A stretch of DNA of 64,000 bases from Candidatus Bathyarchaeota archaeon (lineage in GTDB: Archaea; Thermoproteota; Bathyarchaeia; Bathyarchaeales; Bathycorpusculaceae): contig OY969706.1 of the NCBI GenBank assembly GCA_963702095.1, positions 1,056,001 to 1,120,000 on the forward strand, given 5' to 3'. The position numbers were made by a program, and so were the translations under genes. This document shows, in pieces, positions 23,663 through 61,081 of this stretch (positions are counted from its first letter, which is position 1; the number at the start of each line of letters is the position of its first letter). The notes under the pieces were generated by a model. The model saw only the letters and a list, made by a program, of their open reading frames with translations. It was not told the DNA's origin and made no database searches.

Positions 23663-23739
23663 TCTGTTTACCTAATGAATGCTTATTGCTAGCGTCAATA
23701 TATAAGCTAACTCGCTATTCATGGTTCGACAAGGTATTA

Positions 23740-24450: not shown

Positions 24451-24572
24451 ATTATCTGCCTAAGAGTCATTCAGAAAAGCCTGCTGATGAATTTATGGAA
24501 AAAGAGAAATACCAAGAATAGAGTTATGGATAGGTTATCCCAAGCATAGAATGCCCAGATTTCCTTTGAGTA

Positions 24573-26162: not shown

Positions 26163-28683
26163 TGACTATTCTTACGATTCGTACTTTTTAGAACTATTTG
26201 AGTTACAAACAGAGGAATTCTTGACCAGTTTTAGGGAATTACCCTTCTCACTATACCTTCCTCAACATTCAGAGAAAGTGCGCGCTCTATTTCCAAAAGA
26301 CTTCAAACGATTTGCATATTTTTCAGGGATGCTTGAATCGGGGGATTTTATTACCGCCTATATGGAGAAAAATCGTCAAGCATACCTTGTTTCTTCAAGT
26401 GATTTATCGACAAAACAATTTTTTGCGTTTGGAAGACAAGAATCCGATTATAAAGTTACCTTTAAAAAAATAGAAAACATTTCAGCTGCCGAGGTTTTGC
26501 AGCATGCTCCTTGGTTGATGGATCATTTTCTTTATTCATTCTTACGAAAGTCCATTCCTAATAACTTCAGATGCGAGGGTTCAGTGGCTTACGACATTAG
26601 TGCTGATTTACTTACTGGGAAAGAGGTCAAATCAACCAACGCACTTCTATCTAATTTGGCAGTATACCCCGCAGTAACCTTTTCAATTAACCACTATGGC
26701 GAAAAAATATATATTCATCTATCTCCGACCACCAGAATTTTGTCCAAAGCATCGATTCACAGGATTCAGCAGAATGCTGACTTCTCAAAAGACATAGTAA
26801 AGTATGTACGTTTAGATCTTGGCAAAATCAGCAGGTTTGCCGAAATTAAGGAAATCACCGAATTGCATAGTGATGTAAAAATTAATTCTGAAGCTTTTGG
26901 AAATAGAAATTTTCTTGAATTCGCTAGAGCCAATTACCCTGACATTCAACTGAACGATCCCAAAGCCAAATTGGCGATAGTTATTCCTTCGGGTTCTTCA
27001 AATTCATGGGTTTTCTCCTCAGAGGCCATGTATCCTTCATTCAATTTCCAAGCTATTGATGCTCTAGATCCCAAATTTTTTAAAAGCCTTCTTGGCATCA
27101 TAAAGGCTAGATCAGTAGCCAGATTGGAAAACGCAAGGCAGTTTGTTACAGCCATAAATCCGCTGAGTTCACCTTGCGGAGTAATTGAGATTAATGAAAC
27201 ACCTTTCACATCGAGAATATTGGTCAACGCTCCTTTCCTTCACAGCAATAAAATTGACGAAAGAAACCTCGAAAGACTCTCTGTGTCAGATGATGGCGCC
27301 GTTTTCGAGGCTCCATCAATTAGTTTAAGGGTTGCCGATAGCAAAGGTACATTCAGTGAAAAAACTATTTATCCGGGAATTGATCGTAAATTTGCTAATC
27401 TAAACGATTTGATGAAATGGCCAAATTTAGCACCTCTTGAGCCTATCCCCGAAATAAAAATTTGTTTGATAGTCGATAAAAAATTGGAAAATCAATGGAG
27501 CGCCGAGAAGGAAAACTTTAAACAAGCGTTGCTAAAAGGTGTGAATAATTACAAGTATTCATTTTCAGGGTTTGAGCAAACTTTTAAGTGCCCAATCGTG
27601 ATGTTGAATGAGTTTATAGTCGGCGACTTTTTTGGGGCTGAATTCGAAGAAGTTGTTAAGAAAATAAGTCCGGCTAACTTTGACTGCATTATTCTTATAA
27701 TTCCCCGATGGCTTGAATCAGCCCTTTCATCTAAGCAGATTTATTTGGTTCCAAAGGAAAAAATCATGCAAAAGGGCGTTCCAGTGCAGGTTATCGCAAA
27801 TGATCCAACTAGGGTAAAAGGAACGCTCAAGGATAAAGTTAGAGATCCATTTGTCATGTTTGGCTTGGCATTAAATATTGCTGCTAAACCTGGATATCGG
27901 CTTACTGCTTTCTCTAAAGAATTTGCTGACAAAATAATCGGAAACTCTGTAGTAATGGGCTATAACATAACGCGGATAACTCCTAAGTTGAGGAGTCTCG
28001 AACAAAACAGTACTTTAGAAGAGCGTATGGGTAAAACTATCCCTCTTGTAGCCCCACTCTTTATTATTGACAATAGAGGCTCTCGCATACTTCATTGGAA
28101 TTTTTATCAACCAACTTCCGAAGTAACGCTTTTTTCTGAGTTTGGTGATAAAATATTTAACAAAATTCCCAATGATGTTCAAAGGGTAATCATTCACAAA
28201 GACGGCCCCTTCAAGGATAATGAACTGAAGGTTCTTGAAAGTTTTAATACCGCCGACAGAAAAGTTATCCCCATCTCGATCACGCAATCAAATGCTTTGA
28301 GAATGCATAATGCATCGCATATAGGTGTAGGCAACGAGATTCAGCGTGGCGTCTTTCTAAAGTTGGATAACCGCAACTTCGAACTAGCAACAACGACTAT
28401 TCAAAGCTGGGACGCAACAAATTGGGGTTGGCCGCATCCTATTCACGTTCGAATACATGCAAATCAGGAATATGTTCAAAACCTGAAATTACTGTATCAT
28501 ATTTTCGCTCTTACTAAGATGCATTTTGGATCGCAACGTCCTACGCGGGCGCCAATTTCTATCCATTACGCAAATATGGTATCGACATTTCTACGTGCCC
28601 TTGGTGACGAAGCTCCTTCATTCCATCAAAGCTTCGAAAAAGTCTTTAATGAGAAGGGAAGAATGCCCTTATGGTTCCTTTAA
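26155..28683 (+). CDS. ago: Long prokaryotic Argonaute, predicted catalytically inactive
   Basis: 842 aa; MID pocket Y..K..Q..K (IYLVPK, GVPVQVI, NIAAKPG); PIWI motifs VVMGYN, IIHKDG, LTKM, RAPISIHYAN, C-terminal PLWFL. Confidence 0.9.
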   Translation: MSDDYSYDSYFLELFELQTEEFLTSFRELPFSLYLPQHSEKVRALFPKDFKRFAYFSGMLESGDFITAYMEKNRQAYLVSSSDLSTKQFFAFGRQESDYKVTFKKIENISAAEVLQHAPWLMDHFLYSFLRKSIPNNFRCEGSVAYDISADLLTGKEVKSTNALLSNLAVYPAVTFSINHYGEKIYIHLSPTTRILSKASIHRIQQNADFSKDIVKYVRLDLGKISRFAEIKEITELHSDVKINSEAFGNRNFLEFARANYPDIQLNDPKAKLAIVIPSGSSNSWVFSSEAMYPSFNFQAIDALDPKFFKSLLGIIKARSVARLENARQFVTAINPLSSPCGVIEINETPFTSRILVNAPFLHSNKIDERNLERLSVSDDGAVFEAPSISLRVADSKGTFSEKTIYPGIDRKFANLNDLMKWPNLAPLEPIPEIKICLIVDKKLENQWSAEKENFKQALLKGVNNYKYSFSGFEQTFKCPIVMLNEFIVGDFFGAEFEEVVKKISPANFDCIILIIPRWLESALSSKQIYLVPKEKIMQKGVPVQVIANDPTRVKGTLKDKVRDPFVMFGLALNIAAKPGYRLTAFSKEFADKIIGNSVVMGYNITRITPKLRSLEQNSTLEERMGKTIPLVAPLFIIDNRGSRILHWNFYQPTSEVTLFSEFGDKIFNKIPNDVQRVIIHKDGPFKDNELKVLESFNTADRKVIPISITQSNALRMHNASHIGVGNEIQRGVFLKLDNRNFELATTTIQSWDATNWGWPHPIHVRIHANQEYVQNLKLLYHIFALTKMHFGSQRPTRAPISIHYANMVSTFLRALGDEAPSFHQSFEKVFNEKGRMPLWFL

Positions 28684-28694
28684 GGTGAATAGAT

Positions 28695-29366
28695 ATGGTT
28701 GGTGGCGACACTGGAAAAGAAGGTATTGGTTATGAAGAATTGACTTTAGCGTTTCTCCTTTGTGGACCCTACGAAGTCGGCGCTTGTGAGTATGTTAACT
28801 TTGAAAGAGCAAGGGAATGGGAAATCAACCCTAAGCTTTTCAACTCAAAAATTCTCCAAATCCCATTTACAATTGATGTAGATTTTTTTATTAAAACGCC
28901 AGCTGTATACCATATTTTCTTCTGCAAAAGTTCAAGAAAGCTGGAAAAAAATAGCCCAAAAGAGTACTTTGAGAAAGCCCTCAGTACTTTTTGCGTTCTT
29001 GAAAGTCGTGGAAAAGAAAAATTTCAGGATAATTTTAAGTACTATTTCTTTTCCGACGCCATTCCTTGGCATTTAGTTAAGGATTTGCCAACTCGAGACA
29101 CTATCGAGCTCTCAGCAACGTTACTCAAATCAATGGGTTGTAAGAACACTGCAAAAAATAGGCAAATGTTTTCTCAACCGATTATAGCGGCAGTAAAACA
29201 AAAAACTAGATTTTGCCAGATTGACGAGGCGCTAATAAAAGAAAGAAAACCGCGTTTTCCTCAATTTGATGATATCGTCTCTCAGATTGCACAAGCTAAG
29301 CGTGAAGTTGAGCAAGCAATAAGTGCGCTTTTCCTCGGACTCTGTAGCTCAAGTATCTTTAGGTAA
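28695..29366 (+). CDS. Putative PD-(D/E)XK nuclease (Cap4/DUF4297-like N-terminus), pAgo-associated
   Basis: GGDTGKEGIGYE...DVD...FFCKS pattern; AGGTGA RBS; starts 11 nt after the ago stop. Confidence 0.55.
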   Translation: MVGGDTGKEGIGYEELTLAFLLCGPYEVGACEYVNFERAREWEINPKLFNSKILQIPFTIDVDFFIKTPAVYHIFFCKSSRKLEKNSPKEYFEKALSTFCVLESRGKEKFQDNFKYYFFSDAIPWHLVKDLPTRDTIELSATLLKSMGCKNTAKNRQMFSQPIIAAVKQKTRFCQIDEALIKERKPRFPQFDDIVSQIAQAKREVEQAISALFLGLCSSSIFR

Positions 29367-29838
29367 AGGTAGCAATCATTTAGGCAAACAATTCACTGTT
29401 GGAAAAACCACCTTCTCAATAGGAAATTATAAAAAAATACTTAGCGCTGCTAAATCATTTCAAAAGTCAAACAAAGAGCTAAAAATATTTGGTCACTTAA
29501 TTGATGAATTCAAGTTTTTAGGGAGTGACGAACCCGAAAGTATTGCAGGTATCTGTATTCTTTTTAATGACATTGTCTTCCCCCAAAATAATCTGGAAAT
29601 TTCGATGGCTATTACTCTAAATAATTACGATATTATTTTGTTCAAGCATAAGGAATTGTCAGACTTAATATGGGAAAAGTTGGATAGAAAACAAGGAAAA
29701 TACAACCTGTCTAATGTTAATGTACTTCGACAATTTGATGAAAAAACCGCTGTCGCTATTGCAATGCGAGCTTTTTCTAAAGGTCGATCAACCGATTTAA
29801 TGGAAAATAAATTCATTGTGCGAACCGACGAGATGTAG
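29323..29838 (+). CDS. Hypothetical protein, possibly the frameshifted C-terminal half of 28695..29366
   Basis: 44-nt overlap, GTG start without a clear RBS. Confidence 0.5.
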   Translation: MRFSSDSVAQVSLGKGSNHLGKQFTVGKTTFSIGNYKKILSAAKSFQKSNKELKIFGHLIDEFKFLGSDEPESIAGICILFNDIVFPQNNLEISMAITLNNYDIILFKHKELSDLIWEKLDRKQGKYNLSNVNVLRQFDEKTAVAIAMRAFSKGRSTDLMENKFIVRTDEM

Positions 29839-29939
29839 TAGACGTGTATTTCTAATTCTAATCTAATTTATATACAAAATACTGACTACATTATACAAAT
29901 CTAACGATTTGCTAGAAAAACTATGGAAGTTCAAGAGCA

Positions 29940-32887
29940 ATGAGTTATTTTTGCAAAAACGTTGATAAGATTAAGCTGATGCAGAAAAGCGTTCCTACTG
30001 ACAAGGGTCTAAGAGAGTGCCAAATTGGTGCCTACTGGGCTGTTAATGCTCATTTTACATCTTCAGATGAACCTGCTCTTGTTGTAATGCCAACGGGTTC
30101 CGGAAAAACTGCATTAATAGAATTGTTGTCTTTTGGGTTAAAAGCAAAACGCGTACTTGTAATTACTCCGGGTGCTGTACTGCGTGATCAGTTAAAGGAT
30201 AACTTTCATGAGCTTACTGATTTAGTTGGACAAGGCATCCTTCCAGATGATATTGAGAAGCCAAAGGTTGACTGCCAAAATACTGTAATTACGTCAAAGG
30301 ATCAATGGGAACAACTCGAGAATTGTGATGTTATCGTATGCACACCGCATTCAATCAGCCCTAAGTATCATAAAGCAATTGCTCCTCCACCGGAAGGATT
30401 TTTCGATGTTGTCTTTTTCGACGAAGCACACCATATTAGGGCACCAAGCTGGGAAGAACTGCTTGGAATGTTTGGATCAAGCAAAAAAGTCCTCTTAACG
30501 GCCACTCCTTTCAGGCTTGACCAACTAAAAATGCTCGGTCGTATGATCTACAATTATCCGATTGAACGAGCAGTACAGAATAAAATTTACCAAAAAATAG
30601 AGTACCATAAAGTAGAAGTAGCAAATCCAGACGATCGGAATAGAGCCCTTTGCGATACAGTAAAAATAATTATGGGAGAAGAGAAAGAAAACGGTTTGAA
30701 ACCAAAAATTTTAGTACGAACCGATAAAGTGAAGAAATCAGATGCCCTAATTAAATTATACGCCGAAAATGGATTAAAAATCCGTAAAGTAGATTACACT
30801 CAAAATATGAATGCAAACAAAGCAGTTTTAACTAACCTTAAAGATGATAAAATAGATGGTATAGTTTGTGTGGGCATGCTTGGTGAGGGTATTGATATTC
30901 CTGCCCTCAAAATAGCAGTTTTACATGACCCCCCTAAATCCTTTCCACTCACCATTCAATTTATAGGCAGAATCTGTAGACCTAATGAAGCAAAAAAAGC
31001 ACATGTTGTTGCAGATCCTAAGCAAATAATTGAACGGGACACAAGTGATGAACTACGCCGCCTGTATGGATATGATAAAAAAGGTTGGCATGACCTCATT
31101 CCCGATATGGTTGACGAAGTGGTAGGTCGTGAGACAGAGATTCTTAGTTTGCCCTACCAAATCGGAAGTGGCCCATAAACGCCCAAGACATCAAACCATT
31201 TTACAGCGTTCAAATATATTCTTTGCAACCAGAGACCCTTAATTTAGATACTACCTGTAATTTTGCCGATGATGACATAGCAGTCTTCAAGCTACCGACA
31301 GCCAACGCCAATCTAAGAGTGTTTATCACTCAAAGAATAACTTCTCCTGCATGGGCTTCCAACTTAAGTAAAATCCGTGCTTTAACTTTTGATCTGCATT
31401 TATATTATTACCTGCCCGCAATAGGCTTTTTATTCGAATCAACAACTTTCAATCCTATCTCAGAAGAGATAAGGTATTCAATGACCAATGGACAGGAGCA
31501 AAAACTTCCTAGTGAGGAATTGGTTAAAGCCCTGAGATGTGCAGACCATTTAAACTTTAATATGTTAGGATTAGCGAGCGCTATTGGTTCTAGCCCGTCA
31601 ATTCCAAGTTATAAAACGTTAATGGGCAAGGAGGTCGAAGCTTCGATCGTTCCCACCGACTCACACATATTTATTCCAGGTCACGCTCTTGCAAGGAAAA
31701 AGACTGGCGAAACTATTGGCTTTTCATCATTTCAGGGGAAAATTTGGTCATTAAAGCGTGGAACAATCACACAATTCATTTCATGGTGCAATGAAGTTGC
31801 AGCTAACATTAATATGACTGCAGAAGTTTATTCGCTTCGCGATATTCCCTATCTGAATCCCATTAAAACGGCATGGAGCTTTTCAAGTAAGCCAATCGTA
31901 GTTACGGTGGACCCACATATTTCTGAGTATATAGCAACAATTATTCATCATGAGAGCGGGAAAGAAGACAACTCGATTATTTTTGGGGACCCAATTTTTG
32001 AAATAGTTGATAGTACAGACAAAGACCTATTCGTTACCTTCTATCCTAATTTCGCTGATAAAACATTTAGCATTAACATGTCATATAACATATCGAATAA
32101 CAGTTGGGCTGTTGCAGATTCAGGCTATTATGAACTAAAGCTTGAACCTTCAAATGCGATAGATGGAAAATTGAATTTTAGATTAGAGTATGCTTTCCAA
32201 GAAGAATTTCCGCCTTTTATCTATCTTACAAATGGAACTCTGATTAACGGGCGAACCCTAATTGAGCCAAAGCCTGAATATAAGGACATACCATTTCCTG
32301 AAGAGTGCTTTGTAAAAGGGCTAGTTTGGGATGATTGCAACATCAATAAGGAGTTCCTTAATAAGGGCGAAGCAGTTGGTACTAAAAAAACTATACATGA
32401 CTGGCTTGAGTCATGGCTGAGCAATAATTTGCCGCCGGATTCAATCATTTTTAAAGACCATGAAAGTGGTGAAATAGCTGATTTTATAGCGATTCAACCT
32501 GATGGTAAAATTATAGGTTTCTATCACTGTAAGTCTTCATCGACAAAGCAACCGGGCGCAAGCATTGGTCACATAAGTGCAGTCATGGACCAAGTTTTAA
32601 GGAGTATCTCTTTGGTCAATACGCGGACGCTCGTTGATAGACTATTAGAGCACAGTGACGGAAGGCGACCTAGGTCAAAATTTATCAGGGGTGATCGAGG
32701 TATGGTGAATCAATTGAAGGATACTTTTTCACCGTTAGATTGGTCATATCAAGTTTTCATTGTACAACCTGGTTTAGACTGCAAAGAGGCAGCGGTATAC
32801 GAAAATACTAAACTGCTATTGCTTACCTGCTATGAATGGCTAAAAGACATTGGAGCTAAACTAAGAATAATGGGGTTTTATAAATAA
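29940..32887 (+). CDS. ResIII/DEAH SF2 helicase with C-terminal PD-(D/E)XK nuclease, split by a frameshift near 31173
   Basis: MPTGSGKT, DEAHH, LTATP, GEGIDIP, QFIGR; second frame open from 31148 (PINAQDIKPFYSVQIY); DH..GEIADFIAI...YHCKSS. Confidence 0.82.
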
Positions 32888-34398: not shown

Positions 34399-35847
34399 TC
34401 ACCTTGGAATAACTGTTAAGAATGGTTCGGGTTCCATCTGCACGGTTGCAAACACGGCTAGCGCCGTACTCCAAAACACGTCATCATGGGTGCCGTTTGG
34501 ATGCGAGTATCCTATGGCGCCGTCCTTGCGTAGGTCATAGCGTTCCACGTTTAACTCGGTGCAGATGTCACCTCTGTATGGTCGCTCCCAATTGAGCAGT
34601 GGATAGTAGAATTGCTTGTTCATCATGCGCTGCTTTAGCAGGCTTGCCATCTCGCTCTTTCTTGGCACGCTAAAGTTGACGCCTTCGGCATTCTCTATGC
34701 CCGCAGTCTCCATGTCAGTGATGATGCTTGGGCCTTCCCGTGTAAAGTCAACCCTGATCTTCTGGAAACCGCCCCATCTATCCTGCAGCGCCTTTAGATA
34801 ACCGAGAACTTGAGCGTAGAGTGTGGGCTGCTGGAAAATCTTTAGGTGCCGAAGGAACAGCTTATCGTTTAGGCGCTCAACCACCGAAAGCACACAGTAA
34901 TCCCTTGTCTGCGCCAAGTCAAGTCCAGCAAAAAAGTCCCCTTCACAGCTAGCTTCAGGATTGAACTCTTGCAAATCCTCGCCGCAATTCTTCACTGTGC
35001 CCACGCAGGCAACAATTAAACTCTGAGCCAGCCAAACATCTTCATCCTCTGCCCACTCAGCTTCCATTTCCCGACGCCAACGTTGCGGGTCATCCCCGAA
35101 CTGACGCTTAATCTTCTCAACAATAGCAGGCTTAAGCGGACCATTAGGTTCAAGCGCATCAGTCCACCGAACATGTGACCGTGCAAAATCAGAGTAGTCT
35201 TTGTGGTTGCACATTTTCCAAAACAGCGAATCCGTATTCCAAGGCGTTGACGTGGCGATTAGTTTGCCGTTGGTTGTTCCAAGCGTAAACAGTATGGCAT
35301 CATAGAGCTCCTCGTCGTTAGGAACGAAATTGGCTTCTTCGATCCAGATTACTTTAAAGGTTGGGCCTCTGATTGTGTCGGGGTTGTTGGGGAAGGCTTC
35401 AATCATGCTGCCATTTGGCAACGTAATCCTTGTTTTTTGTATGTGCAGGCCTGGCTGCTGTGGAAGCTTTCGGCAAAAACCGCCCATGCGTCGTATGTTT
35501 AGTTTGGTTTGGCGCCAGCTTGGACCCACAATCGCGACATAGCTGTCAGGATGTTCCCAGGCGTATTTAAGAAGCAAAGCTGAAACCGAGAAGCTTTTCC
35601 CGGTTTGGCGTGCCCAGCGTACAGCGGTGAATTGGTTTTTCTCAAATTTCTCGGCTAACTCAAGCTGGTATTTGAAGGGTGTAAAGCCAAAAATCTGCTC
35701 AAAAAAGCCCTTAACATCCCTCTTTAAGGCATCGACATGGTTTTCGCTGGATTTTTCAACCGCTGCCACGTCCTCCCAGAGCTTGTTGTACTCCGAGAAG
35801 AGCTGATTAGGACGAAGTGCCCTGGGACTTTTTCCTAAGCGCCTCAT
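34399..35847 (-). CDS. terL: Terminase large subunit
   Basis: FKYQ, WARQTGKS, IRG..WIEEA, STP, GLDLAQTRD, HDDVFWS. Confidence 0.95.
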   Translation of the reverse strand: MRRLGKSPRALRPNQLFSEYNKLWEDVAAVEKSSENHVDALKRDVKGFFEQIFGFTPFKYQLELAEKFEKNQFTAVRWARQTGKSFSVSALLLKYAWEHPDSYVAIVGPSWRQTKLNIRRMGGFCRKLPQQPGLHIQKTRITLPNGSMIEAFPNNPDTIRGPTFKVIWIEEANFVPNDEELYDAILFTLGTTNGKLIATSTPWNTDSLFWKMCNHKDYSDFARSHVRWTDALEPNGPLKPAIVEKIKRQFGDDPQRWRREMEAEWAEDEDVWLAQSLIVACVGTVKNCGEDLQEFNPEASCEGDFFAGLDLAQTRDYCVLSVVERLNDKLFLRHLKIFQQPTLYAQVLGYLKALQDRWGGFQKIRVDFTREGPSIITDMETAGIENAEGVNFSVPRKSEMASLLKQRMMNKQFYYPLLNWERPYRGDICTELNVERYDLRKDGAIGYSHPNGTHDDVFWSTALAVFATVQMEPEPFLTVIPR

Positions 35848-39231: not shown

Positions 39232-41441
39232 TTATTTTGTTACTTTTAATCTGTTAATTCTATTGACTTTCGATTTTAGTGCGTACACGTAATCCGCTAA
39301 CAAAACGGCTTCCCTGCCAAGCTCCAACATTATCTCCAATTCTTGAGTTTGACCGTCAACAAGATATTCAGCGCTGATAACTCGGAAGTCTGCGTCTACG
39401 TTCTCGTTTGGCAACTCAACATGTACTTTGTCGCCTGCAAGGATTAAAGTCGTGCCGTAGTCGATAACTGAACTTTTAACAGTTAGGTGCTCAGCTGGGT
39501 CCTTCATATAGTCAAGGATTGCTTGGGCTCTTAGGTTACATTCGTTGTCGCTGTATAATTCGTCGTCTGTGTCAACGTATTCTCGGAGTCCGTAGAGCGC
39601 TTGACTAGGATAATCTTCAACAACCGCACAGTAACGCATACCGCCGAAGTATAGACCATCTATCCAGTAATCGCCGTTTCCAGGGCTTAAATCCTGATGA
39701 ATATTTATTGAAACTTGAACCCTTACAATTTTGTTCCAATGGAACCCTGATTGACCATAACCGGGAAGCCATTCATCCGCATACTTGGAGCCGACTTTAA
39801 GCGAGACCTGGTTCCATTGAGCGTCATGCGCGACACCGGGTTTAGCAACCATTTGCTTTCCAGTATCGTCGATTAAGCTAATTGCCACCCCTGAACCTTC
39901 AAACGTGCTTGGAATATAGAGGCATAAATTAAGCGTGGGAAATAACTCGCAATTTGGTTCCATCCCTGCTTTGAAGGTGAATTTTGCCATTCCATACCAA
40001 TCGTTCACAAGGTGAACTTTGACGCTGCTTGTTCCGAAGGCTTTGTTTGTACTATCCTGTGCGACGTTTCCTGAGCCGCCCGAGCCTCCAGCGAAAGTCC
40101 AATCACCGTAGGGTGGATGCAGTATCTCTGTGAAGCCGTCTTTATCGAGAGGATAGCTTTTGTCCGACGCGCCCCAAATGGTGATTTTGTTTCGCACTGC
40201 AGAGATGTCTTTGCTGTAGGTGCTTTCCTCGATGCTGTCGGTTAAGTCGGCAACTACGCTTCGGCTGTTTTTGCGGAAAAACTCAAATCGCCCATCTGGA
40301 GCAACACGGAAATCAAAACCGATTACCCCGTTGTAGTCCGCTGACTGTGCAATATACTGCAGTATGTCCCAAACTGGCGTATCGTTGTAATCAAGCTCTG
40401 TATAGGTTGTGCTTGTATTCTCGACGAGTTCATAGCCATTGCGTGTATGGCTGATTCCCACGTAATTGTCCAGTAGGTCCTTGACTATGGTTTCGCCTTT
40501 GCAGTTGAGGTATTTTTTGGTGACTGTTCGGCGAAATAGCCGCTCTCCCCAGCATCTACCGCTTATGAGGGCATAGGTTTCTGTGCCTGTGGCTTGGTAC
40601 TCTATGTGCTCAACTTTGAGCGAAATCATGGGTAGCACGTTTGGGTTATAGGGGATGCGGCAAATTCCGATTCCTCCAGTTGCTCCCAGTTGGATGGGTA
40701 ACCAGCCGCTTTGGCTGTATTTTTTGCCCCAATTCTGGAGTTTAACTTCAAAGCTGCTTACCTCTTTTGTGGCGCCCAAATGAACCGTACATTCGATTAT
40801 GTCGGTCTCTGGAACGAAGATATTGCCAAAAACAACTACTGGTTTTGGAACGTTGATTACTTGCTCGGTGCTAGTTGGGGGCAACCCGACGTAGTGGAAA
40901 TTGGCCGTAATGGATGCATCATTGCCAGGATACCAAACGTATGGATTGTCATTGTTTCCGTCGCCCCAATCATCAAAGGTGTAGCCTGATTGTGGAAAAG
41001 CCTCTAGGCTGATTTGGTCTTCGGGATTAAAATGGAGTGTTGCTGGAAAGCTGGCAAAGACTACCGAGGTTTGCTGCCCAACGTTTATGGCTATTATGTG
41101 GTTGCATTCTTGGCTTAAGGCGGTGATTGTTAGGGTTTTGGTGCCTGTCCCGCCTTCTTGGCCTTGCCCTTCGTATAGGTTAAGTACAAGGATTATTGGT
41201 TGGGGTGTGTCCCAAGCTGCAAGTTGAGAAGCGGTGTTAGTGGCTGTCCAGTAGCCGGCAAAGATTTCATACCATTGGCTGCCAAGGAAAGGCGTCGGAA
41301 ACGCCAAATCTCCTGTAACGTAATCGCCGTTTCCATCGGTCAGCTGCCTTCTTCGACGGCAACGTAATCAACGACGGCAACGTTAGCGCCCACAATTGGA
41401 TTCCCATGTTGGTCCTGAACATGCACAGTAAAAGACGTCAA
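39232..41441 (-). CDS. Tail tip/baseplate hub protein with Ig-like and carbohydrate-binding-like domains (frameshift near 41345)
   Basis: TTG at 41441 overlaps the upstream stop; VQDQHGNPIVGANV / TDGNG Ig-like; GYTFDDW repeat; FRVAPDGRFEFF, VRNKITIWG, SQALYGLRE, GDKVHV hub motifs. Confidence 0.75.
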
Positions 41442-42118
41442 GGCGACTCAAGACCTCTGCGAAGCGATGCGTTGCCTCCAATGTTGCTGCTCATGGAGCT
41501 TACGGATTCTTCGCCGGCTCTGGTTATGCTTCTAACGTGCTGGGGCGTTGAAATATTGGCGGCGTTAAAGGTCTTAACGCTACTCGTCGCCGAATCCATG
41601 CTTTTAGAAAAAGCAAACATCGCAACTGCAGCGGCAGCAATGACAGCGATCCCAACTCCGGTTAATGCGAAAAAGGTTGCATAACTAATGTTTAGTGCAT
41701 TTTGAGCAGCGGTTGAAATCCAAGCGGCAGCGCTATAGACCGCGTGAGCTGTAGCAGAAATTCCCAAGCGAACAGCTTGAAGCGTCTGTGATATGATGCC
41801 TGTCTGAGTAGCTGTGTTTTGAGCCACTTGAGCCGTCATGGCGCCAGTAGTTGAAACCGCCAAAGTGCTTTGAACACCAGCGCCTGCAGCAACGGCGGCG
41901 TTTTGGGCTGTCTGGGTTGCAGTGGCAGTCATCAGAATAGCATGCAACGAAGTCATGACGCGAATAACAGAGAAGATTTGCATGACACTTCTGCCAGTCT
42001 GTGAGTCTAGGGCGCCAAAAGAGACCCCTAAATTGATTACATCAGAGGAGATGGAGCGGAAAACGGATGAGGCTCGGTTCTCAGCACGAACGGCTATGCT
42101 GATGTCGCGCATGCTCAT
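41438..42118 (-). CDS. Short tape-measure-like protein
   Basis: ISIAVRAENRAS N-terminus, Ala/Thr-rich, AAQNALN..TGVG motif; position after the chaperone. Confidence 0.7.
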   Translation of the reverse strand: MSMRDISIAVRAENRASSVFRSISSDVINLGVSFGALDSQTGRSVMQIFSVIRVMTSLHAILMTATATQTAQNAAVAAGAGVQSTLAVSTTGAMTAQVAQNTATQTGIISQTLQAVRLGISATAHAVYSAAAWISTAAQNALNISYATFFALTGVGIAVIAAAAVAMFAFSKSMDSATSSVKTFNAANISTPQHVRSITRAGEESVSSMSSNIGGNASLRRGLESP

Positions 42119-42450
42119 GTCAGGCCAGCCTCCACTTTGGCACTTTCAATTGCCTCGATGATTATTTGTTCGAGTTGGGGCAGGTATTCTTGTAATGCGG
42201 GAAAGAGGTAGGGTTTAGCTTGCATGTATCGGGTGCCAGCTTCCACAAAGTAAGCGTAGGTTGCTTCAGCGCCGATACTTACCAGCCAATCTTTGACTAC
42301 AGCGTAGATTGTGCTTCTTAGGTAGCCTGTTTTTACGGAGACAAGTTGTCTTGCTAATGCTTGCACATCGTTAGCCCAAGTGACTAAATAACGGTAGACG
42401 GCATTCTGCAGGGCAGGGTCAAGCCTAAGCATAGCATCCCCAAACTCCAC
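42115..42450 (-). CDS. HK97 gp10-like neck/tail-completion protein
   Basis: VKTGYLRSTI...YAYFVEAGTRYMQAKPYLFPA. Confidence 0.9.
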   Translation of the reverse strand: MEFGDAMLRLDPALQNAVYRYLVTWANDVQALARQLVSVKTGYLRSTIYAVVKDWLVSIGAEATYAYFVEAGTRYMQAKPYLFPALQEYLPQLEQIIIEAIESAKVEAGLT

Positions 42451-43914: not shown

Positions 43915-45270
43915 TCATTTTGCAACCCACAATTTCTTAGGAAAATAACTGCACTTGACTTGGACAGTGACTCTTGCAAAAGTCGAATCATCGGTTTTAT
44001 TGGATGTCTGAGTTACAGCTACATCAATCAAGCCAGGTATGACTCTGCGGTGCTGAATTCCCGTGCCCGGGTCCCAAAGCGGGCCTAACCTGCTGTACAG
44101 GTGCATAATCCGTTCAACTTCAACTCGCATGCGTTCTCGAATAAAGCAGGCTTTGTCAAGGGTAGTACCAAGGACCTTAACTAAAACTTCAACGGCGACT
44201 ACTTCAGCTCTTAACCAACGGTTGCCGCCTTCACTTAGGCTGTAGCAGCTGATTGCATATTTTTGGGGCATGTTTTTGAAGTCATGCTTTGATGGTTGAA
44301 TATCCCAATCAGCAACGGTTGAGGCTCGACCGTCTAGCCAAGCAATTTCGGTTTTAGCGGGCCCGCCTATCCATTCTGCTTTCAGCGTCTCCAATAGGAC
44401 TGTGCTGTTTGGTTCAACTGCAACTTGAGAATTCAAGAACCGATGGATAATGCGAAGGCTGTCTCGGGGTTTTCCAGTGGTGTGCTCAAAGAACCACCAG
44501 TAGGCCTCAAACTGGAGAAGCTCAGCGCCACTGTACCAGACTGTTGGCATGGTGACGGCTTCTTGCATATGGCACACCATGTAGGAGATTGGCATGTTGT
44601 CTGGGTTCCAGATGTTGGCTTCTGGATGCGCCGATAAGCCTCGATGGCGAGTTTCCCAATACCAGCTCTCAATTGTGGCGCCCCAATGCTCCGGATAGGG
44701 TGAAGAGGCCCTTAGCTTGTCAACCAGATACTTGAAAGCTGCAGCGGGTTCCATGTCACCTGAATTAGTCTTAAACCCCACCGTGACAATGTCTTCGTAT
44801 CCAGCGATAACTTGCAAAACTTTGTCGAAGGCTGCAATCTTCCATTCGCAAAAATAAACCTTAATACCGTTAGATTTGCAGAACTGCAGTAACCCAATTA
44901 CATAGTCGTCTGGGAAGGGTAGATGCAGCCACTCTTCATAGTAGCTTACGAGTTCTGCAATACGAATCCAGGGTATCTGGACGCCCGCCGCAATCAAATC
45001 CTGTAACCGCTCGGGGGTCACATACTGAGCTGTATCCCAGCCGCCAGCGCAGTCAATCATCACGGGGATGCCTTGAAAATTAGCAGTTATCCAAGCGGCC
45101 TCATCAGCCCAAACAGCATGTGCATTATACTCAGGGAGCAACACAACATCTGAAACCTTTCCCTCGTTAACTGCGAGCATCTGCTCGTAAACGGCGTGGA
45201 CATTTGGCATGTGCACCGTAAACTCCGGCGACGTCTTTTCGCTAACATGATAAACGATGGTTTTGAGCAC
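43915..45270 (-). CDS. Fusion of a TIM-barrel/glycosidase-like domain to a tail-terminator-like C-terminal domain
   Basis: N-terminal ~280 aa homologous to 45730..46686; C-terminal part sits in the terminator position before the tube gene. Confidence 0.55.
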   Translation of the reverse strand: MLKTIVYHVSEKTSPEFTVHMPNVHAVYEQMLAVNEGKVSDVVLLPEYNAHAVWADEAAWITANFQGIPVMIDCAGGWDTAQYVTPERLQDLIAAGVQIPWIRIAELVSYYEEWLHLPFPDDYVIGLLQFCKSNGIKVYFCEWKIAAFDKVLQVIAGYEDIVTVGFKTNSGDMEPAAAFKYLVDKLRASSPYPEHWGATIESWYWETRHRGLSAHPEANIWNPDNMPISYMVCHMQEAVTMPTVWYSGAELLQFEAYWWFFEHTTGKPRDSLRIIHRFLNSQVAVEPNSTVLLETLKAEWIGGPAKTEIAWLDGRASTVADWDIQPSKHDFKNMPQKYAISCYSLSEGGNRWLRAEVVAVEVLVKVLGTTLDKACFIRERMRVEVERIMHLYSRLGPLWDPGTGIQHRRVIPGLIDVAVTQTSNKTDDSTFARVTVQVKCSYFPKKLWVAK

Positions 45271-45596
45271 TATGCACTCCCCAGATAGGGCTCTGTTTCG
45301 GCATCGATGTATGCCTGCAAGAAAGCCACCGCATCATTCCAAAAGCCCTGAGCGCTAGCGGGGTCACGAATGCGACGATATGCCCAAGCCGCAAAATTGC
45401 ATGCAGAGAACTTGACCAGCTGAGGCACGAAAGCTGGCACCATCAAACCCTTGGCTTTTAGGAACCCGTCGATTAAGCCGCTACTAGCAACTATGCAACT
45501 GGCTATTTCCGTATCCTCGCTTGTCTCTGCTGCGTCAATGTGCAAGAAAGGCTTTACTTCCGAGACAACGCAATAGTCTGCCATCGAAATTACCAA
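45270..45596 (-). CDS. Head-tail adaptor (gp6/gp15-like)
   Basis: YCVVSEVKPFLHI...DTEIASCIVASSGLIDGFL...VPQLVK. Confidence 0.8.
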   Translation of the reverse strand: MVISMADYCVVSEVKPFLHIDAAETSEDTEIASCIVASSGLIDGFLKAKGLMVPAFVPQLVKFSACNFAAWAYRRIRDPASAQGFWNDAVAFLQAYIDAETEPYLGSA

Positions 45597-45729
45597 GTAG
45601 CCAATCAGAAAAATTAGAAAAAAAGGCTTCTTATCAAAAAAAACCTATCAAAAAATCTACACTAAAAAATACCCTGAAACTCCTAAGTTTTAAAAGCCAA
45701 CAACCGTTAGATATCGATAAACGGGTTGA

Positions 45730-46686
45730 ATGATAATGAACAGGGCAACAATATTAATCGCTGTATTAGTATGCATCATTCTAACCGTCAGTTTTGCAGG
45801 AATCATCGCTACTTATAGCATCGCTGACGAAAACAAAAGCCTCAAAGAACAATTGGCAGCACCGTCAAAAAGCAGCAGTTAACGTTAGTTTTCCATGTAT
45901 CCGAAAAAGGCGATGAATACACATATGCCCGGCTCCCAAACGCCAGCTATACTTACGACCAAATACTCGCACTAAACAACAACACGTACCAAATCCTCTT
46001 ACTTCCAGAATACAAAGGAAACCTCAACTGGACAGAAGAACTCGCCTGGATAGAAGCAAACTTTGGAGGACCACAAGGCATCCCAATAATGCTAGATGTC
46101 TTTGGTGGAGGAAGTCAGAGTACACCCACACCAATGCTGACAACAGACCAAATCTCACAGGCTATGGACATAGCAAACGTCAAGTGCATTCGTATTGCAG
46201 AGGTAATAAGCTGGCACCTAGAAAACAACCTATCCTTCCCAACTAATTACGTTAATGAGCTCTTAGAATTCTGCAAAACACACAACCTCCAAGTATTTTG
46301 GACTGAGTGGAAAAACGACTTCCCAGATAAAAATGTAGAAACCTTTACAGCGATTAAATCATACATAGCAGGCTACGAAGACCTTGTAACCGTTTCCTTT
46401 TCTACCAATTCACAAGAACTTGAACCTGCGGACGCATTTCTAAAACTTGATCAAATGTTTACTCAATGGGGCACATCAATTCAACCTTGGTACTGGAATA
46501 CCACCCAAAACCAAGACCTAATGGACATGCCTGCCTCACTAATACCTAGAACACACTTTTGCAGCTCAAGGATTAGGCGCAAAAATAATACAGTATGAAC
46601 CTTACTGGTATCTCTTTGATAATGGAGTACCAAACGAAAACTTGAAGCTAATCTTAACAAATTTAGTCAACGAAAACAGCCACTAA
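45730..46686 (+). CDS. Membrane-anchored paralog of the 43915..45270 N-terminal domain (frameshifts near 45870 and 46545)
   Basis: N-terminal TM ILIAVLVCIILTVSFAGII; then VFHVSEK, LLLPEY, IRIAEV, FWTEWK, GYEDLVTV..TNS, WG..IQPWYW, QYEPYW. Confidence 0.75.
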
Positions 46687-46731
46687 CTCTTTTAAAAAAA
46701 GGAAATTAAGGAAAGAACCGCCTTTTTCGGT

Positions 46732-47880
46732 CTAGTAGTGGCCGCCGCAGTTAATGCAGTCTATTTTCATTTGGCTTGTCGTGCCTGAATCGTATGCGAT
46801 GACGAGTATGAAGCTGTATGTGCCGCTTGGTGTACCGCAGCTGATCCATCTGTCGCCGCCATTGTAAACGAGTTGCTCGCTGCTGAGTCGCCAGTTGTAG
46901 TTGTCGCTTGAGACGTAGACGAGGAACCTGCTGAATGATTGCATTGAATCGCCATGTATCCAAACTTGCCCTGAAGCTGTGCCTCCGAGCCAATAGGATG
47001 CTCGTGCTGTTGCGCCACTTGATGCTGCGAGGAAGGTTGCGTAGCTGTAGTCAGGTGTTCTATACTGGCATTCGTATGGATTAGTAATGGATGCTGAGCC
47101 CCAAACGTCTGTGTATTGGCAGCTACATGCGAAGTGGATTTCGTCGTCAGGGATTAGGAATTTCCAGCTTTCCCAGCCCTCGTCGTAGTGTGATGTTCCA
47201 ACGCTAAATCCGTGTCTGTTGCTTGAATCGGGTATGTCATCAGTTGCACCGCGTTTCTCATAGTAAATTGGGTAGCCGGGTGTAACGTGGTCCCACTCTA
47301 TGCAGAATGAGATTCTGTAAGTGTGTCCGTTCCAAACATGTCCGTTTACTGAGTCAGTGAAGTCTTGCGTTGACCAGTAGTTTGGCCATTGGTCGTATCC
47401 ATAGGTTAAGCCAGACCATGTTAGGTCATATTGGAAGTAGAGTGTGTTGCCGTTCCATTGGTCGTAGTAGAATGTTTGGTCGTTAACCCAGACTGCTCCG
47501 CCTTGTCTGCTAATTGGAATCCACATCGTTGGGTATGGTCCTTCGGCTGGTATCGGTATCTCTAAGCCGTTTGCAACTACCACTCCGTCGATTTCGAGGA
47601 CTTTGAGAAGTCTTGCTTGTACCATTTCGCCGTCGTAGAAGTTACTATCCCATGCGGGTAGTTCTGCGGTTAAGTATGCAACGTCATATTTGTCCTCAGA
47701 TGGGTAGCCATAACATGACTGCTCATGGCTCCAATCATAGCACCGTGAGAATTGCGTGTCATCGATGGTAAGGCTGCCGATTATTGTCTCGCCCGTTGCT
47801 GCCGCTTTTGGAGTTAGTATGGCAAACATTGAGATTGCTAAGAGAGCAATTATCAAGATAGAGATTGGCTTTTTATTCAA
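46732..47880 (-). CDS. Secreted aromatic-rich protein of unknown function
   Basis: Signal peptide MNKKPISILIIALLAISMFAIL; W/Y/C-rich; AGGTGA RBS. Confidence 0.75.
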   Translation of the reverse strand: MNKKPISILIIALLAISMFAILTPKAAATGETIIGSLTIDDTQFSRCYDWSHEQSCYGYPSEDKYDVAYLTAELPAWDSNFYDGEMVQARLLKVLEIDGVVVANGLEIPIPAEGPYPTMWIPISRQGGAVWVNDQTFYYDQWNGNTLYFQYDLTWSGLTYGYDQWPNYWSTQDFTDSVNGHVWNGHTYRISFCIEWDHVTPGYPIYYEKRGATDDIPDSSNRHGFSVGTSHYDEGWESWKFLIPDDEIHFACSCQYTDVWGSASITNPYECQYRTPDYSYATFLAASSGATARASYWLGGTASGQVWIHGDSMQSFSRFLVYVSSDNYNWRLSSEQLVYNGGDRWISCGTPSGTYSFILVIAYDSGTTSQMKIDCINCGGHY

Positions 47881-48046
47881 TTTTTCACCTCCACCAACCC
47901 CTAAATTGGAAAATAACTGCTGAAATGCCTTCTTTTCAAAAAACAGGCAATAAAAAACACTAATTAAAATGAATTAACTAACCGATAACTAGTTAAAAAC
48001 AACGATAAAAAAAGGATAAAAAACAAAGGCTTACTGAATGCAAACA

Positions 48047-49808: not shown

Positions 49809-50789
49809 CTAAGCTTCAGTCTGCTCTATAGTCTGCTTGATGTTTGTCATTCTGGCAATACCCTTAGAACGCAGGATACCTAAGCCAAATCTGGTTGTGG
49901 CACGAACCCCGTACTTGCCATTCTTAACGTCTATCCAGTCTTCGACTGTAACGTCTCGGCGTAGCAGCATAACAGCGGCAATTCTTGTGTCAATTGCGTA
50001 GGCAGTTCCGTTAGGTACAAGGGTTGTTGACTGAACTTTCATGTTCAGAACGTTTCCTATGCTGCCTTGGGCAATGTCGGTTTCGTCGCTGGGCAGATAT
50101 ACTGAGTTTATGAATTTGTCGTCGTTTAACAATTGGTGCTTCTGCATAGTGCTGCATGGTAGTACTGTTGGGTTCCAGTCCTCGCCTTCGACAGCGTTAT
50201 GAATGTTTAGCAATCCCGCCCAACTTAGTGGTGTATTGCCGCCGGCAACCTCTGCTCCGCCAGCGAGATCGGCATTAGCAACAGCAGCATACAATGCCAG
50301 AATTCTCTTTGTTTCATCTTTGGCAAGGGCTCTTCCAACTTTTTCTACCATGTTATTCATTACGTTCCAAGTGGCGTCTTCGGTGAATTCTTTAGTCCAT
50401 TCTTCAGAGGCTTCGGCTAGGATGTTTGTGTAGATGTCAACGGTACTGCTTTTTTTGCCGCTCAAGCGTGTGACTGCACCTTCAGCATATCGATATGCGA
50501 CAGCTTCTTCGTCAAGTGGAAAGCGCTCCATCTGCTCAGTAGTCGGCAGAACGGTTATGATGCTTCTGCCAATAAGGTTAGGCTGTGCTGCCTGCACTAG
50601 AGTGTCATGCATTCTTCCAAGGGCACCAACAGAATCGCTAAAGAGGCCTTCTTTGACTCCCAAATCGGTATAGCGTTTTAGAAATGGGTGGGTGCACATC
50701 TTCGGTTTCAAAGTTTCATAGAACTGCCTAGTTGAGCCGTCTGTAATGGCTTTGTCTTGCATTACTGCTTCGAAAAGTCTTGGTTTCAT
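49809..50789 (-). CDS. Major capsid protein (HK97 fold)
   Basis: AEG, SEEWTKEFTEDA, GNVLNMKV..TTLVP, RATTRFG. Confidence 0.88.
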   Translation of the reverse strand: MKPRLFEAVMQDKAITDGSTRQFYETLKPKMCTHPFLKRYTDLGVKEGLFSDSVGALGRMHDTLVQAAQPNLIGRSIITVLPTTEQMERFPLDEEAVAYRYAEGAVTRLSGKKSSTVDIYTNILAEASEEWTKEFTEDATWNVMNNMVEKVGRALAKDETKRILALYAAVANADLAGGAEVAGGNTPLSWAGLLNIHNAVEGEDWNPTVLPCSTMQKHQLLNDDKFINSVYLPSDETDIAQGSIGNVLNMKVQSTTLVPNGTAYAIDTRIAAVMLLRRDVTVEDWIDVKNGKYGVRATTRFGLGILRSKGIARMTNIKQTIEQTEA

Positions 50790-58503: not shown

Positions 58504-58518
58504 TGGCGGGTCCGACGG
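58504..58518. repeat. Attachment-site core within tRNA-Lys
   Basis: Identical to 10541-10555. Confidence 0.85.
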
Positions 58519-58581
58519 GAGTTGAACCCGCGACCCTCGGATTAAAAGTCCGATGCTCTAGCCTGACTGAGCTACGGACCC
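58504..58581 (-). tRNA. trnK: tRNA-Lys(UUU), no intron, CCA encoded
   Basis: GGGTCCG acceptor stem, TCGGA-CTTTTAA-TCCGA anticodon arm, GGTTCAACTCC T-arm, ends CGGACCCGCCA. Confidence 0.97.
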
Positions 58582-59440: not shown

Positions 59441-61081
59441 TTGATTTCATGGAAATACACGTTTAAACGTATAAACGAAGAATACGAAATCGCCACGAAG
59501 AAGAAGCAGGCCCTAGAGAACCTGTGCGCTTCAGGCAGGATTTCACAAGCAACCCACGACTCATTCACAAGCGACATCGTCAAAGCCATAACCGAGCTTG
59601 AAAATCAACGCAAAGAACTCGGCGAGAAAATGCAGGCAAAAACCCTCGAACTTGAAGGGCAACTTAAAACACTCGAAATGTTGCTTGCCAACTACGAAAT
59701 CCAGCATGTCGTAGGCGAAATCGATGACGAAATTTATACCCGAGAAATTAATCTTCTCGCAAGTACCCTTGAAACAACCAAGAATGAATTAGGCACAATC
59801 AAAGAGGCGGCTAGTCAACTTTTTTCTTCCCCCAAACCAATAGAGGCTCCAGTAGCGGTTAAACCAGTCGCTGAAGCTGCGCCCATACCATCAATTCCCG
59901 TTGAAGTTCCAGTTGAAACTGCCACAATCGAACCCGCAATCGTGGAAACAGTGACAGCTGCCGAACCTACATCAGTTGAAACAGCGCCAGCCGAAGCACC
60001 AGTCGAACCTGCTCCAGTTGAAGTAGCATCGATAGAAGTTGCATCTATTGAGGCTCCAGTTGAGATAGCTCCAGTTGTGGAAGCCCCCATTGAACCCTCT
60101 CCAGTTGAAGCTCCAATCGAAACCGTGCCAGTTGAGTGCGCTCCCGCAGAAGTAGCTCCAGTCGAAACTGTCGAAGCAGCCCCAATCGAAGCACCAGCAG
60201 TTGAAGCCCCTCCAGCCCAAGAAACCGTAATTGAAACTCCAGTTGAAGCAGCACCAACAGAAGCCCCCATAGAGATTCCAGTCGAGGCAGTCCCAGTTGT
60301 GGAAGCTCCAATTGAAACCGCTCCAGTTGAAACCCCAGTCGAAACTGCAACAGTTGAAATACCAGCAATCGAAGAAGCCCCTATTGCTGAAGCTCCAATC
60401 ATCGAGTCAGCCCCCATGGATGTGCCAGTTGAAACCGCCCCTGTCGAGGTTGCACCAGTAGAAACAGCGCCAGAGACCGAAGCGCCAGCAGCAATTGAAA
60501 CTCTAGCCGTTGAGACCCCTGTTGTTGAAGCAGCCTCTGCTCCAGCGGAAGAAGCTCCAATCGCCTCTGCCGAGCAAGAAATACAAATTATCACCGAACC
60601 AGCAGTAGAAGCAGTTATCAATGAATCAATCATCGAGGAAGCATCTGCCGCTGAACCAGTAGCCGAAGCAGCCCCAATTGAAGAGCCGATCATGGAAGCA
60701 TCAGTTGAAGAAGACGCTCCAGTTCAGACTTTACTCATCGAGGAAGCTCCAGCAGTTGAAGAAACCCCAATAGAAACCGCAACTCAAGAAATCGTTGACG
60801 CTGCTCCAGCTGAAGTGGTAGATGAGGCCTGTGCAGAACCAGTCGTTGAGGCACCTCTGCAAACATTCGAAGTTACCGAGCATGCCCCAACAGAAATCAC
60901 CCTTGAAAAAGCATTAGAAGACGCAATAATTGTAGAGCAACTTCAACCAGTTATCGTGGAGGAGGTCCACGTGCCAGCCCACCCTACAGAAGCGCCCCCG
61001 CAGGCGCCTTCAGAAGAGACCGCAGAGGCAGACCAATCCCCCCCAGTAGAAGAAAACGACGAAAACACCACAACTGAATAA
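59441..61081 (+). CDS. CdvA-like coiled-coil protein with a long acidic Pro/Ala/Glu/Val-rich tail
   Basis: N-terminal GRISQAT...YEIQHVVGEIDDEIY coiled coil; more than 400 aa of APVE/APIE-type repeats. Confidence 0.7.
   Translation: MISWKYTFKRINEEYEIATKKKQALENLCASGRISQATHDSFTSDIVKAITELENQRKELGEKMQAKTLELEGQLKTLEMLLANYEIQHVVGEIDDEIYTREINLLASTLETTKNELGTIKEAASQLFSSPKPIEAPVAVKPVAEAAPIPSIPVEVPVETATIEPAIVETVTAAEPTSVETAPAEAPVEPAPVEVASIEVASIEAPVEIAPVVEAPIEPSPVEAPIETVPVECAPAEVAPVETVEAAPIEAPAVEAPPAQETVIETPVEAAPTEAPIEIPVEAVPVVEAPIETAPVETPVETATVEIPAIEEAPIAEAPIIESAPMDVPVETAPVEVAPVETAPETEAPAAIETLAVETPVVEAASAPAEEAPIASAEQEIQIITEPAVEAVINESIIEEASAAEPVAEAAPIEEPIMEASVEEDAPVQTLLIEEAPAVEETPIETATQEIVDAAPAEVVDEACAEPVVEAPLQTFEVTEHAPTEITLEKALEDAIIVEQLQPVIVEEVHVPAHPTEAPPQAPSEETAEADQSPPVEENDENTTTE

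Follow-up and report, generated by a model that had tools for sequence, protein, structure and literature searches.

The described systems that come closest to the locus reported here are the tail terminators of tailed viruses, a family of glycan-cleaving enzymes, and a glycan-active capsid turret of an archaeal virus. In the passages that treat it, the T5 terminator is a four-stranded sheet flanked by two helices, which forms a hexamer on the last tube ring; the same passages mention extra domains on some terminators, for example for sheath contact, and name no enzyme domain (PMC11784142). In the archaeal virus HFTV1, the hexameric "tail completion protein" gp29 is placed between connector and tube, and the capsid turret combines a carbohydrate-binding module with a deacetylase/hydrolase-like domain. 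The authors propose, in the text on this turret, that it binds and degrades host surface glycan at adsorption, and they report there that they found no homologues of the turret protein in other haloarchaeal viruses (PMC12494034). Glycoside hydrolase family 98 (GH98) is introduced in PMC5738707 as small and inverting; it belongs to no clan, and its known activities are those of galactosidases and xylanases. Here, we describe a 64,000-nucleotide (nt) stretch of a Candidatus Bathyarchaeota archaeon (assembly GCA_963702095.1, contig OY969706.1, positions 1,056,001 to 1,120,000; hereafter, the window), in which an integrated head-tail virus carries one barrel domain in two genes. One gene, on the minus strand, fuses the barrel to a tail terminator (the fusion gene), and the other, on the plus strand, has the barrel behind a membrane anchor (the + copy). 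Our best explanation, to which we give a probability of roughly 0.6, is that a GH98-like barrel sits on the tail terminator and that the anchored copy was separately derived and was recently broken here.

The two genes lie 460 bp apart (45270 to 45730), as the preliminary description had it, and its proposal that the N-terminal ~280 amino acids (aa) of the fusion protein are paralogous to the + strand gene holds. BLASTP of the fusion protein against the + strand frame 45828..46598 gave 89/220 identities (40%, E 2e-47), the last + strand piece (46543..46686) aligned to fusion-protein residues 248-275 (E 4e-07), and the shared motifs that had been listed were all found in both genes. The gene pair also recurs in related viruses. 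Within the flank examined, a second, anchored copy was present in 5 of 22 fused-gene loci (L002, L026, L027, L029, and L030; loci and contigs from our scans carry L numbers), of which L002 and L026 are apparently the same virus.

AlphaFold2 (AF2) modeled the fusion protein from a 33-sequence alignment with a predicted local distance difference test score (pLDDT) of 89.1 and a predicted template modeling score (pTM) of 0.89. In this model, residues 1 to ~283 form eight strand-helix units, without a signal peptide or membrane anchor. We ranked the structure by VIA-align against 48,161 chain representatives, with Foldseek alongside. The top three matches of the fusion barrel were all GH98: 2wmh_A (Z 20.9, root mean square deviation [rmsd] 3.4 Å, 267 residues aligned, 13% identity), 2wmi_A (Z 20.4), and 9h6h_A (Z 17.6). 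The families that followed (GH1, GH53, GH18, and others) had Z scores of 15-16, the best being 15.9. Foldseek on the fusion protein also gave GH98 (2wmf, E 5e-10). The 316-aa L017 protein, an intact relative of the + copy (85% protein identity), was modeled with a pLDDT of 91.4 as a helix at residues 3-45 followed by the barrel, and this barrel again ranked GH98 first (Z 21.2, rmsd 2.9 Å, 249 aligned, followed by Z 21.1 and 18.8; next family 15.8). The shared domain, for which a TIM-barrel glycosidase or a glycan binder had been suggested, is thus a (beta/alpha)8 TIM barrel that superposes on solved GH98 structures in two separate models and has GH98 glycoside hydrolases as its nearest solved structures. 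Leads from the ESM Atlas to DUF4434/GHL10 (0.86 and 0.84) were weak and were not used as evidence.

Both clades of the barrel, fused and stand-alone, share a core of conserved residues. In an alignment of 30 barrels, E106, E142, N169, and E255 (fusion-protein numbering) are invariant in all 30, and in the AF2 model they lie at or just past the ends of strands 4, 5, 6, and 8. A profile search of 1.84 billion representatives returned 133 barrel relatives. We also aligned 51 distant, bacterial relatives (E 1e-10 to 1e-3; 350-1000 aa for the most part). Where they cover these positions, they retain E106 in 9/9, D or E at 142 in 29/31, N169 in 31/32, and E255 in 49/50. Some of the 41 relatives scanned for accompanying domains, 36 of them from the distant group, carry F5/8-type-C, NedA-like galactose-binding, Laminin_G_3, BNR_4, FG-GAP, or SLH domains. 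This company of binding modules, together with the invariant acidic residues, favors catalysis. Two of the distant relatives, when searched against the PDB, matched through their binding modules only, and the cluster names for 10 relatives were all "hypothetical" except for one "discoidin domain-containing protein."

The position of the presumed active site can be compared with GH98 enzymes. The general acid is named as Glu411 in RgGH98 in the passage of PMC8730463 that covers it, and the PDB title of 9h6g calls the E361A form of the Bacteroides ovatus (B. ovatus) enzyme inactive. By linear interpolation of the aligned ranges only, both Glu411 and E361 map to within ~6 residues of L017 residue E155, the equivalent of fusion-protein E106. 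This is only suggestive of a GH98 general acid near E106. A further position, residue 201 (~44668-44670), directly precedes the WYW motif. Most fused proteins have Glu there, whereas the stand-alone clade and 43/50 distant relatives have Gln, a clade-specific change near the presumed active site. We considered whether the virion barrel might instead bind glycan without catalysis, or only decorate the neck as a structural element. Phage necks and tubes are well known to carry decorative and carbohydrate-binding domains, and no glycosidase sequence family matches the barrel; however, neither clade shows any variation in the acidic residues that end strands 4, 5, and 8, and distant relatives retain them, which a binder would not have to do. 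In addition, the nearest structures are active enzymes. We regard a non-catalytic barrel as quite unlikely, and we favor a barrel domain that binds and probably cleaves glycan.

The C-terminal part of the fusion protein has a fold of its own: residues 288-442 are modeled as two helices and a beta-sheet. Foldseek matched this domain to the T5 tail terminator p142 (8bcu_A, template modeling score TM(target) 0.60, E 2.4e-5) and to 9fkb_Pa, a 156-residue HFTV1 tail chain (TM 0.56). In BFVD, 14 of the top 50 matches are named tail terminator, tail completion, or neck terminator (126-196 aa). The tail-terminator fold that had been surmised for this domain is borne out by these matches. The gene also stands where a terminator gene stands, as the neck/tail-module gene that directly precedes the one for the tail tube, both here and in related loci, and since the window has a separate gp10-like Neck1 gene, the C-terminal domain is best read as the terminator. 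A search for stand-alone versions of the domain recovered two fragments of broken genes only. The fusion protein as a whole is best read, on the strength of the model and the gene order, as a virus tail terminator that would cap the head-proximal end of the tail tube.

The preliminary description had allowed that the fusion might be an artefact, and this doubt can be set aside. A search of 5.8 billion proteins found 54 homologues of the fusion protein down to 40% identity, most of them full-length (436-461 aa, down to 43% identity), and the source names shown are Bathyarchaeia or Bathyarchaeota in all cases but one. Scans of genome and viral contigs placed the fused gene in 22 loci, of which 9 are genomic and 13 viral. 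To the extent that each locus is covered, the genes follow one another in all 22 as adaptor, fused gene, tube, 152-aa gene, gp10-like gene, putative tape measure, and tip protein. In the window, the GTG start of the fusion gene overlaps the adaptor stop by one base, and the adjoining adaptor is kept in related loci. Because most homologues are full-length and the position between adaptor and tube is conserved, the fusion of the barrel to a terminator-fold domain is real, and Bathyarchaeia viruses have conserved it. Three of the genomic loci (L003, L005, and L006) have a fused gene that is broken up into different frames, and L006 has at least four such breaks. These loci are either decaying proviruses or indel-rich assemblies, and frame breaks in such assemblies need therefore not be biological.

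For the virion, we propose that a GH98-like glycosidase barrel of 285 aa has been joined to the N-terminus of the tail terminator and that, if the usual terminator hexamer forms, six barrels would ring the neck. There, they would bind a host-envelope glycan, such as S-layer glycan or exopolysaccharide, and would probably cleave it as well. The glycan would be met as the short-tailed virion approaches or leaves the cell: the product of the putative tape measure gene has only 226 aa, so the tail should be short and the neck near the cell surface at adsorption.

The + copy encodes the same barrel in three pieces that are separated by two frameshifts (Table 1). Reading passes from frame A to frame B and returns to A after ~690 nt. 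Of the membrane anchor that had been described for this copy, the hydrophobic N-terminus is real (MIMNRATILIAVLVCIILTVSFAGIIAT), but it lies in another frame than most of the domain. As the DNA reads, with two frameshifts, this lysogen has no intact anchored gene. The intact relatives continue in frame past the site of the first frameshift, and the stand-alone anchored gene is intact, at 311-402 aa, in L002, L017, L027, L029, and L030. In comparison with L017, the + copy has a ratio of nonsynonymous to synonymous substitution rates (dN/dS) of 0.14 over 314 codons and no stop besides those that result from the two indels. The + gene was therefore under selection until very recently. Two insertions that together restore the frame could be chance, the trace of a compensating mutation, or an effect of assembly.

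The two frameshifts might thus be assembly errors, with a + gene that is intact in the living cell. Apart from the indels, the + copy shows no stop or other damage, in keeping with its low dN/dS, and the indels sum to three bases, which brings the last piece back to the first frame. In addition, the 2-nt insertion is absent from a near-identical contig of the public run X2, and the same shorter form is read at a loose end in X3. The fusion gene, an essential one, is itself frame-broken in the genomic assemblies L003, L005, and L006. The X2 and X3 runs are from other samples, however, so that their contigs show relatives and not this cell. Neither indel falls within a long homopolymer. Of the neighboring provirus DNA, ~9.4 kb aligns with L001 (3.1 kb at 80% and 6.3 kb at 94%), and the 12 genes common to the window provirus and L001 match without a frame break. 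In the public runs, the second frameshift site was bridged by no near-identical contig; no RNA run was listed as containing the stretch, and no run of any kind had more than one quarter of the sampled words. On balance, assembly errors are an unlikely cause of the frameshifts, and we are fairly confident that the + copy here is a real, recent pseudogene.

To place the + copy, we compared it with the stand-alone genes found by the genome scans. These encode an N-terminal hydrophobic anchor, followed in most by 100-150 residues rich in Q, S, N, and L, and then by the barrel; the Q/S/N/L-rich stretch matches coiled-coil families, and we refer to these genes as stalked. Housekeeping genes flank all nine chromosomal loci examined (L010, L012, L013, L014, L015, L016, L018, L019, and L020), among them genes for adenylosuccinate lyase, cysteine desulfurase, prolyl-tRNA synthetase, an ammonium transporter, and RNase P subunits. 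At L018, a terminase gene lies 3 kb off, past two metabolic genes. We built a maximum-likelihood tree from 31 barrels, in which the fused proteins form a clade of their own (100/100). The virus-borne anchored copies of the window, L002, L027, L029, and L030, together with that of L017, fall inside the chromosomal group, next to L015 (92/89). When all virus-borne copies are forced into one group, even the best tree loses 49 log-likelihood units, and the approximately unbiased (AU) test rejects it (p 0.003). L011, an anchored 309-aa gene, groups with the fused clade. This genome lacks a chromosomal stalked copy by genome search. One Bathyarchaeota metagenome-assembled genome (MAG; contigs L007, L009, and L010) has two fused-gene loci and a chromosomal stalked barrel, so host and virus versions of the barrel can coexist. 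The idea that the chromosomal stalked genes are core envelope enzymes was dropped: of 301 genomes sampled from the class, only 5, with the present one among them, have the domain at E 1e-10, and it is therefore not a general envelope enzyme.

The preliminary description had read the + copy as a duplicated virion domain which, made from the lysogen, would destroy or mask the glycan receptor and exclude superinfecting viruses. The tree rejects the duplication: the copy falls within the group of chromosomal stalked genes, and a single viral clade fits significantly worse. Instead, the + copy may be a second acquisition from the stalked lineage, or the stalked lineage may descend from such cargo. 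Exclusion as a function has several points in its favor. The protein is membrane-anchored with the barrel facing outward, and both clades have the same invariant core residues. The gene runs divergently to the structural genes behind a conserved TATA-like box of its own, and its slot (see below) holds other secreted or membrane proteins in relatives. In related viruses, the gene is intact and under purifying selection. Yet, in addition to the failed duplication origin, the two frameshifts allow no anchored enzyme here as the DNA reads, and a second copy in 5 of the 22 fused-gene loci, with L002 and L026 likely one virus, means that the pair is optional. Superinfection exclusion by a duplicated virion domain is, in our estimate, improbable.

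The genomic context of the + copy points to cargo. A variable slot lies between the putative portal plus a 68-aa gene on one side and the adaptor on the other, and it holds the + copy and a secreted 382-aa protein here. The latter is 80% identical in L002/L026, and a 60% identical fragment was found in L033. The closest relative, L001/L023, has a 96% identical fusion protein and matches the window on both sides of the slot, which is filled there by unrelated DNA, again between the putative portal plus a 66-68-aa gene and the adaptor. Two proteins are encoded in the slot of L001 (3390..5449, on the strand opposite the structural genes), one of 497 aa that is secreted and one of 152 aa that is a membrane protein. 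Across relatives, the slot is 0.6-4.4 kb long and seems to collect surface proteins. The core of the TATA-like box, T-(A/T)-T-A-A-A-A-G, is present in all five loci aligned, which fits an archaeal promoter that would travel with the anchored gene. The + copy is thus provirus-borne and has a signal-anchor helix and a candidate promoter of its own.

The anchored copy could also be cargo with another use, such as remodeling of the cell's own surface glycan, help in foraging on external polysaccharide, or the freeing of new virions from debris when they are released; the chromosomal stalked genes would then have the same use. Its nearest relatives are chromosomal genes among housekeeping genes, the distant bacterial relatives resemble extracellular glycosidases with binding modules, and in L017 the gene is found outside the virion module, beside an insertion sequence (IS) element. 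On the other hand, L017 retains small remnants of the viral protease gene near the anchored gene, so its copy may have been left behind by a virus. Few genomes of the class have the domain, and no conserved neighbor genes indicate a pathway. We consider such other uses possible, if doubtful. Our preferred explanation for the + copy is that its source was not the virion gene but the chromosomal Bathyarchaeia lineage in which an anchor, a coiled-coil stalk, and the barrel are combined, and that it rides in the variable cargo slot with its own putative promoter. Built as an anchor, a short stalk, and an outward-facing barrel, an intact copy would act on the outer face of the lysogen membrane. A bolder version would make the pair a two-part receptor-destroying system, in which a terminator ring of six GH98-like glycosidases acts together, in some of the viruses, with a host-derived anchored enzyme that is made from the provirus and trims the same glycan on the lysogen; we regard this as a long shot.

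Several points weigh against a GH98-like terminator with a separately derived, recently broken second copy. No GH98 or other glycosidase Pfam model was found for 30 barrel-family members (hmmscan, E up to 10), and the barrel had no match in PHROGs, NCBIfam, or PDB sequence and profile searches; as no sequence library recognizes it, the barrel is not a sequence-level GH98 member. A PF08306 search of this genome also gave no match and is uninformative because the controls gave none either. A shared fold is no proof of activity, and the catalytic match depends on interpolation. For the C-terminal domain, searches of 16 sequences against Pfam and PHROGs (E up to 10) returned scattered chance-level matches only, a PDB profile search gave no terminator match, and the BFVD names mix "terminator" with "completion." The formation of a ring and the position of the fusion protein in the virion are what we infer from its reading as a terminator. 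We chose the grouping for the AU test with the tree already known, and whether the domain passed from host to virus or the other way is judged from a midpoint root only. The restriction of the domain to 5 of 301 genomes also counts here, as does the chance that the frameshifts could be assembly errors, given that the fusion gene is likewise split in three other assemblies.

The coordinates of all features are collected in Table 1. The structural module of the head-tail virus occupies ~39.2-52.2 kb of the window on the minus strand. The window is part of a single 2.94-Mb contig, and cellular genes are found on both sides (a Hel308-type helicase, a CdvA-like gene, and creatininase); the virus is therefore integrated. 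Direct repeats of at least 18 nt that might mark the provirus ends were sought in 28-60 kb and none was found; family searches of the window proteins gave no match to an integrase, and the one tRNA-Lys (58504-58581) does not fix the ends. A region adjoining the provirus (20948..31178) may be a defense island. Further on, a + strand gene (59441..61081) encodes a 546-aa protein with a CdvA-like coiled-coil domain at its N-terminus, followed by an extensin-like, proline-rich stretch.

Table 1. Features of the window, with positions counted from its first nucleotide.
Feature	Coordinates	Strand	Details and basis
Fusion gene, 451 aa: GH98-like barrel and tail terminator	43915..45270	-	Open reading frame, homologues, AF2 model
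N-terminal domain, aa 1-285, (beta/alpha)8 barrel	44416..45270	-	AF2 model, structural matches
C-terminal domain, aa 286-451 (166 aa), tail-terminator fold	43915..44415	-	AF2 model, Foldseek
+ copy, first piece	45730..45882	+	Signal-anchor helix; ends at stop from first frameshift
+ copy, second piece	45828..46598	+	Barrel strands 1-7, other frame
+ copy, third piece	46543..46686	+	Strand 8 (QYEPYW) and last helix
First frameshift, 2-nt insertion	~45858-45859	+	Alignment with L017, L029, L030, L002
Second frameshift, 1 extra C in CC	46545/46546	+	Alignment with L017, L029, L030, L002
TATA-like box TTTTAAAAG	45688..45696	+	40-48 nt upstream of conserved ATG at 45736
Variable cargo slot	45597..48046		Between putative portal plus 68-aa gene and adaptor
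382-aa protein	46732..47880	-	N-terminal signal or anchor sequence; no family match
Head-tail adaptor, 108 aa	45270..45596	-	Directly upstream of fusion gene; Pfam Phage_Mu_Gp36, E 2.1e-05
Tail tube protein, 286 aa	43007..43867	-	Directly downstream of fusion gene; Pfam Phage_tube_2, E 5e-10; PHROG 290
HK97-gp10-like Neck1 protein	42115..42450	-	Family searches
Tail tip protein	39232..41307	-	Family searches
Capsid protein	49809..50789	-	Family searches
Large terminase	34399..35847		Further on from structural module; family searches
Hel308-like helicase	20948..23662		Possible defense island
DUF2797 protein	24573..26162		Possible defense island
842-aa protein	26155..28683		Possible defense island; weak Piwi match, E 1.4e-4, below cut-off
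ResIII/DEAD helicase	29940..31178		Possible defense island

Bathyarchaeia are among the most abundant sediment archaea, and to our knowledge nothing is known from experiment about host recognition by their viruses or about the make-up of their cell surface. An enzyme-like barrel that is kept on the terminator across a whole virus group would point to surface glycan as a key player. The locus would also be a clean example of a virus that took the same host domain twice, by two routes and to two locations. Virion-borne glycan-active proteins are common as such, and the interest is higher for archaeal virology and for carbohydrate-enzyme classification, in which the barrel family would be a new glycosidase family, recognized so far by fold only. 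Candidatus Bathyarchaeum tardum, reportedly a cultivated representative of the Bathyarchaeia, has a stalked homologue (L020) in its genome, which makes the question testable. If the two-part system were true, the logic of influenza neuraminidase would have arisen independently in archaeal viruses, with a new family related to GH98.

Among the matches listed by our text search of the literature, there was no enzyme-like barrel on a tail terminator, and neither the barrel family nor its pairing with a host-derived anchored paralogue was found in print. The passages searched in papers on Bathyarchaeia viruses make no statement on a glycosidase, a neck, or superinfection for this gene, which their supplements may list. 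Relative to the terminators of T5 (p142), lambda (gpU), SPP1 (gp17), and HFTV1 (gp29), the C-terminal domain has the same fold and size and its gene directly precedes that of the tube; the difference is the enzyme-like barrel of 285 aa that the fusion gene adds at the N-terminus.

Relative to GH98, represented by Sp4GH98 and Sp3GH98 of Streptococcus pneumoniae, RgGH98 of Ruminococcus gnavus, and the B. ovatus endoxylanase, the barrel has its best match here in both models by a clear margin. Like GH98 enzymes, relatives of the barrel are extracellular, and some have glycan-binding modules. In contrast to them, the barrel shares only 13-16% identity and does not match the GH98 Pfam model (Glyco_hydro_98M). 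It spans ~270 residues here, whereas the aligned GH98 ranges are ~290-310. The models also lack the C-terminal beta-sandwich: proteins of the + copy type end after the barrel, and the fusion protein continues with the terminator-fold domain. The hosts here are archaea and their viruses, and the activity of the barrel is putative.

The phi29 pre-neck appendages and the lactococcal neck passage structure are glycan-active or glycan-binding proteins at the neck, and influenza neuraminidase is a receptor-destroying enzyme that consists of an N-terminal signal anchor, a stalk, and a glycosidase head. We know of none among these in which the genome that encodes a virion enzyme also has a paralogue of it that was acquired separately and is anchored in the membrane. 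The HFTV1 turret resembles the system described here in that an archaeal tailed virus has a putative glycan-active domain away from the tail tip; it differs in fold, in carrier (capsid turret versus tail terminator), and in host. The chromosomal and cargo copies resemble neuraminidase in layout, with a signal anchor, a stalk, and a glycosidase-like head, a likeness without homology.

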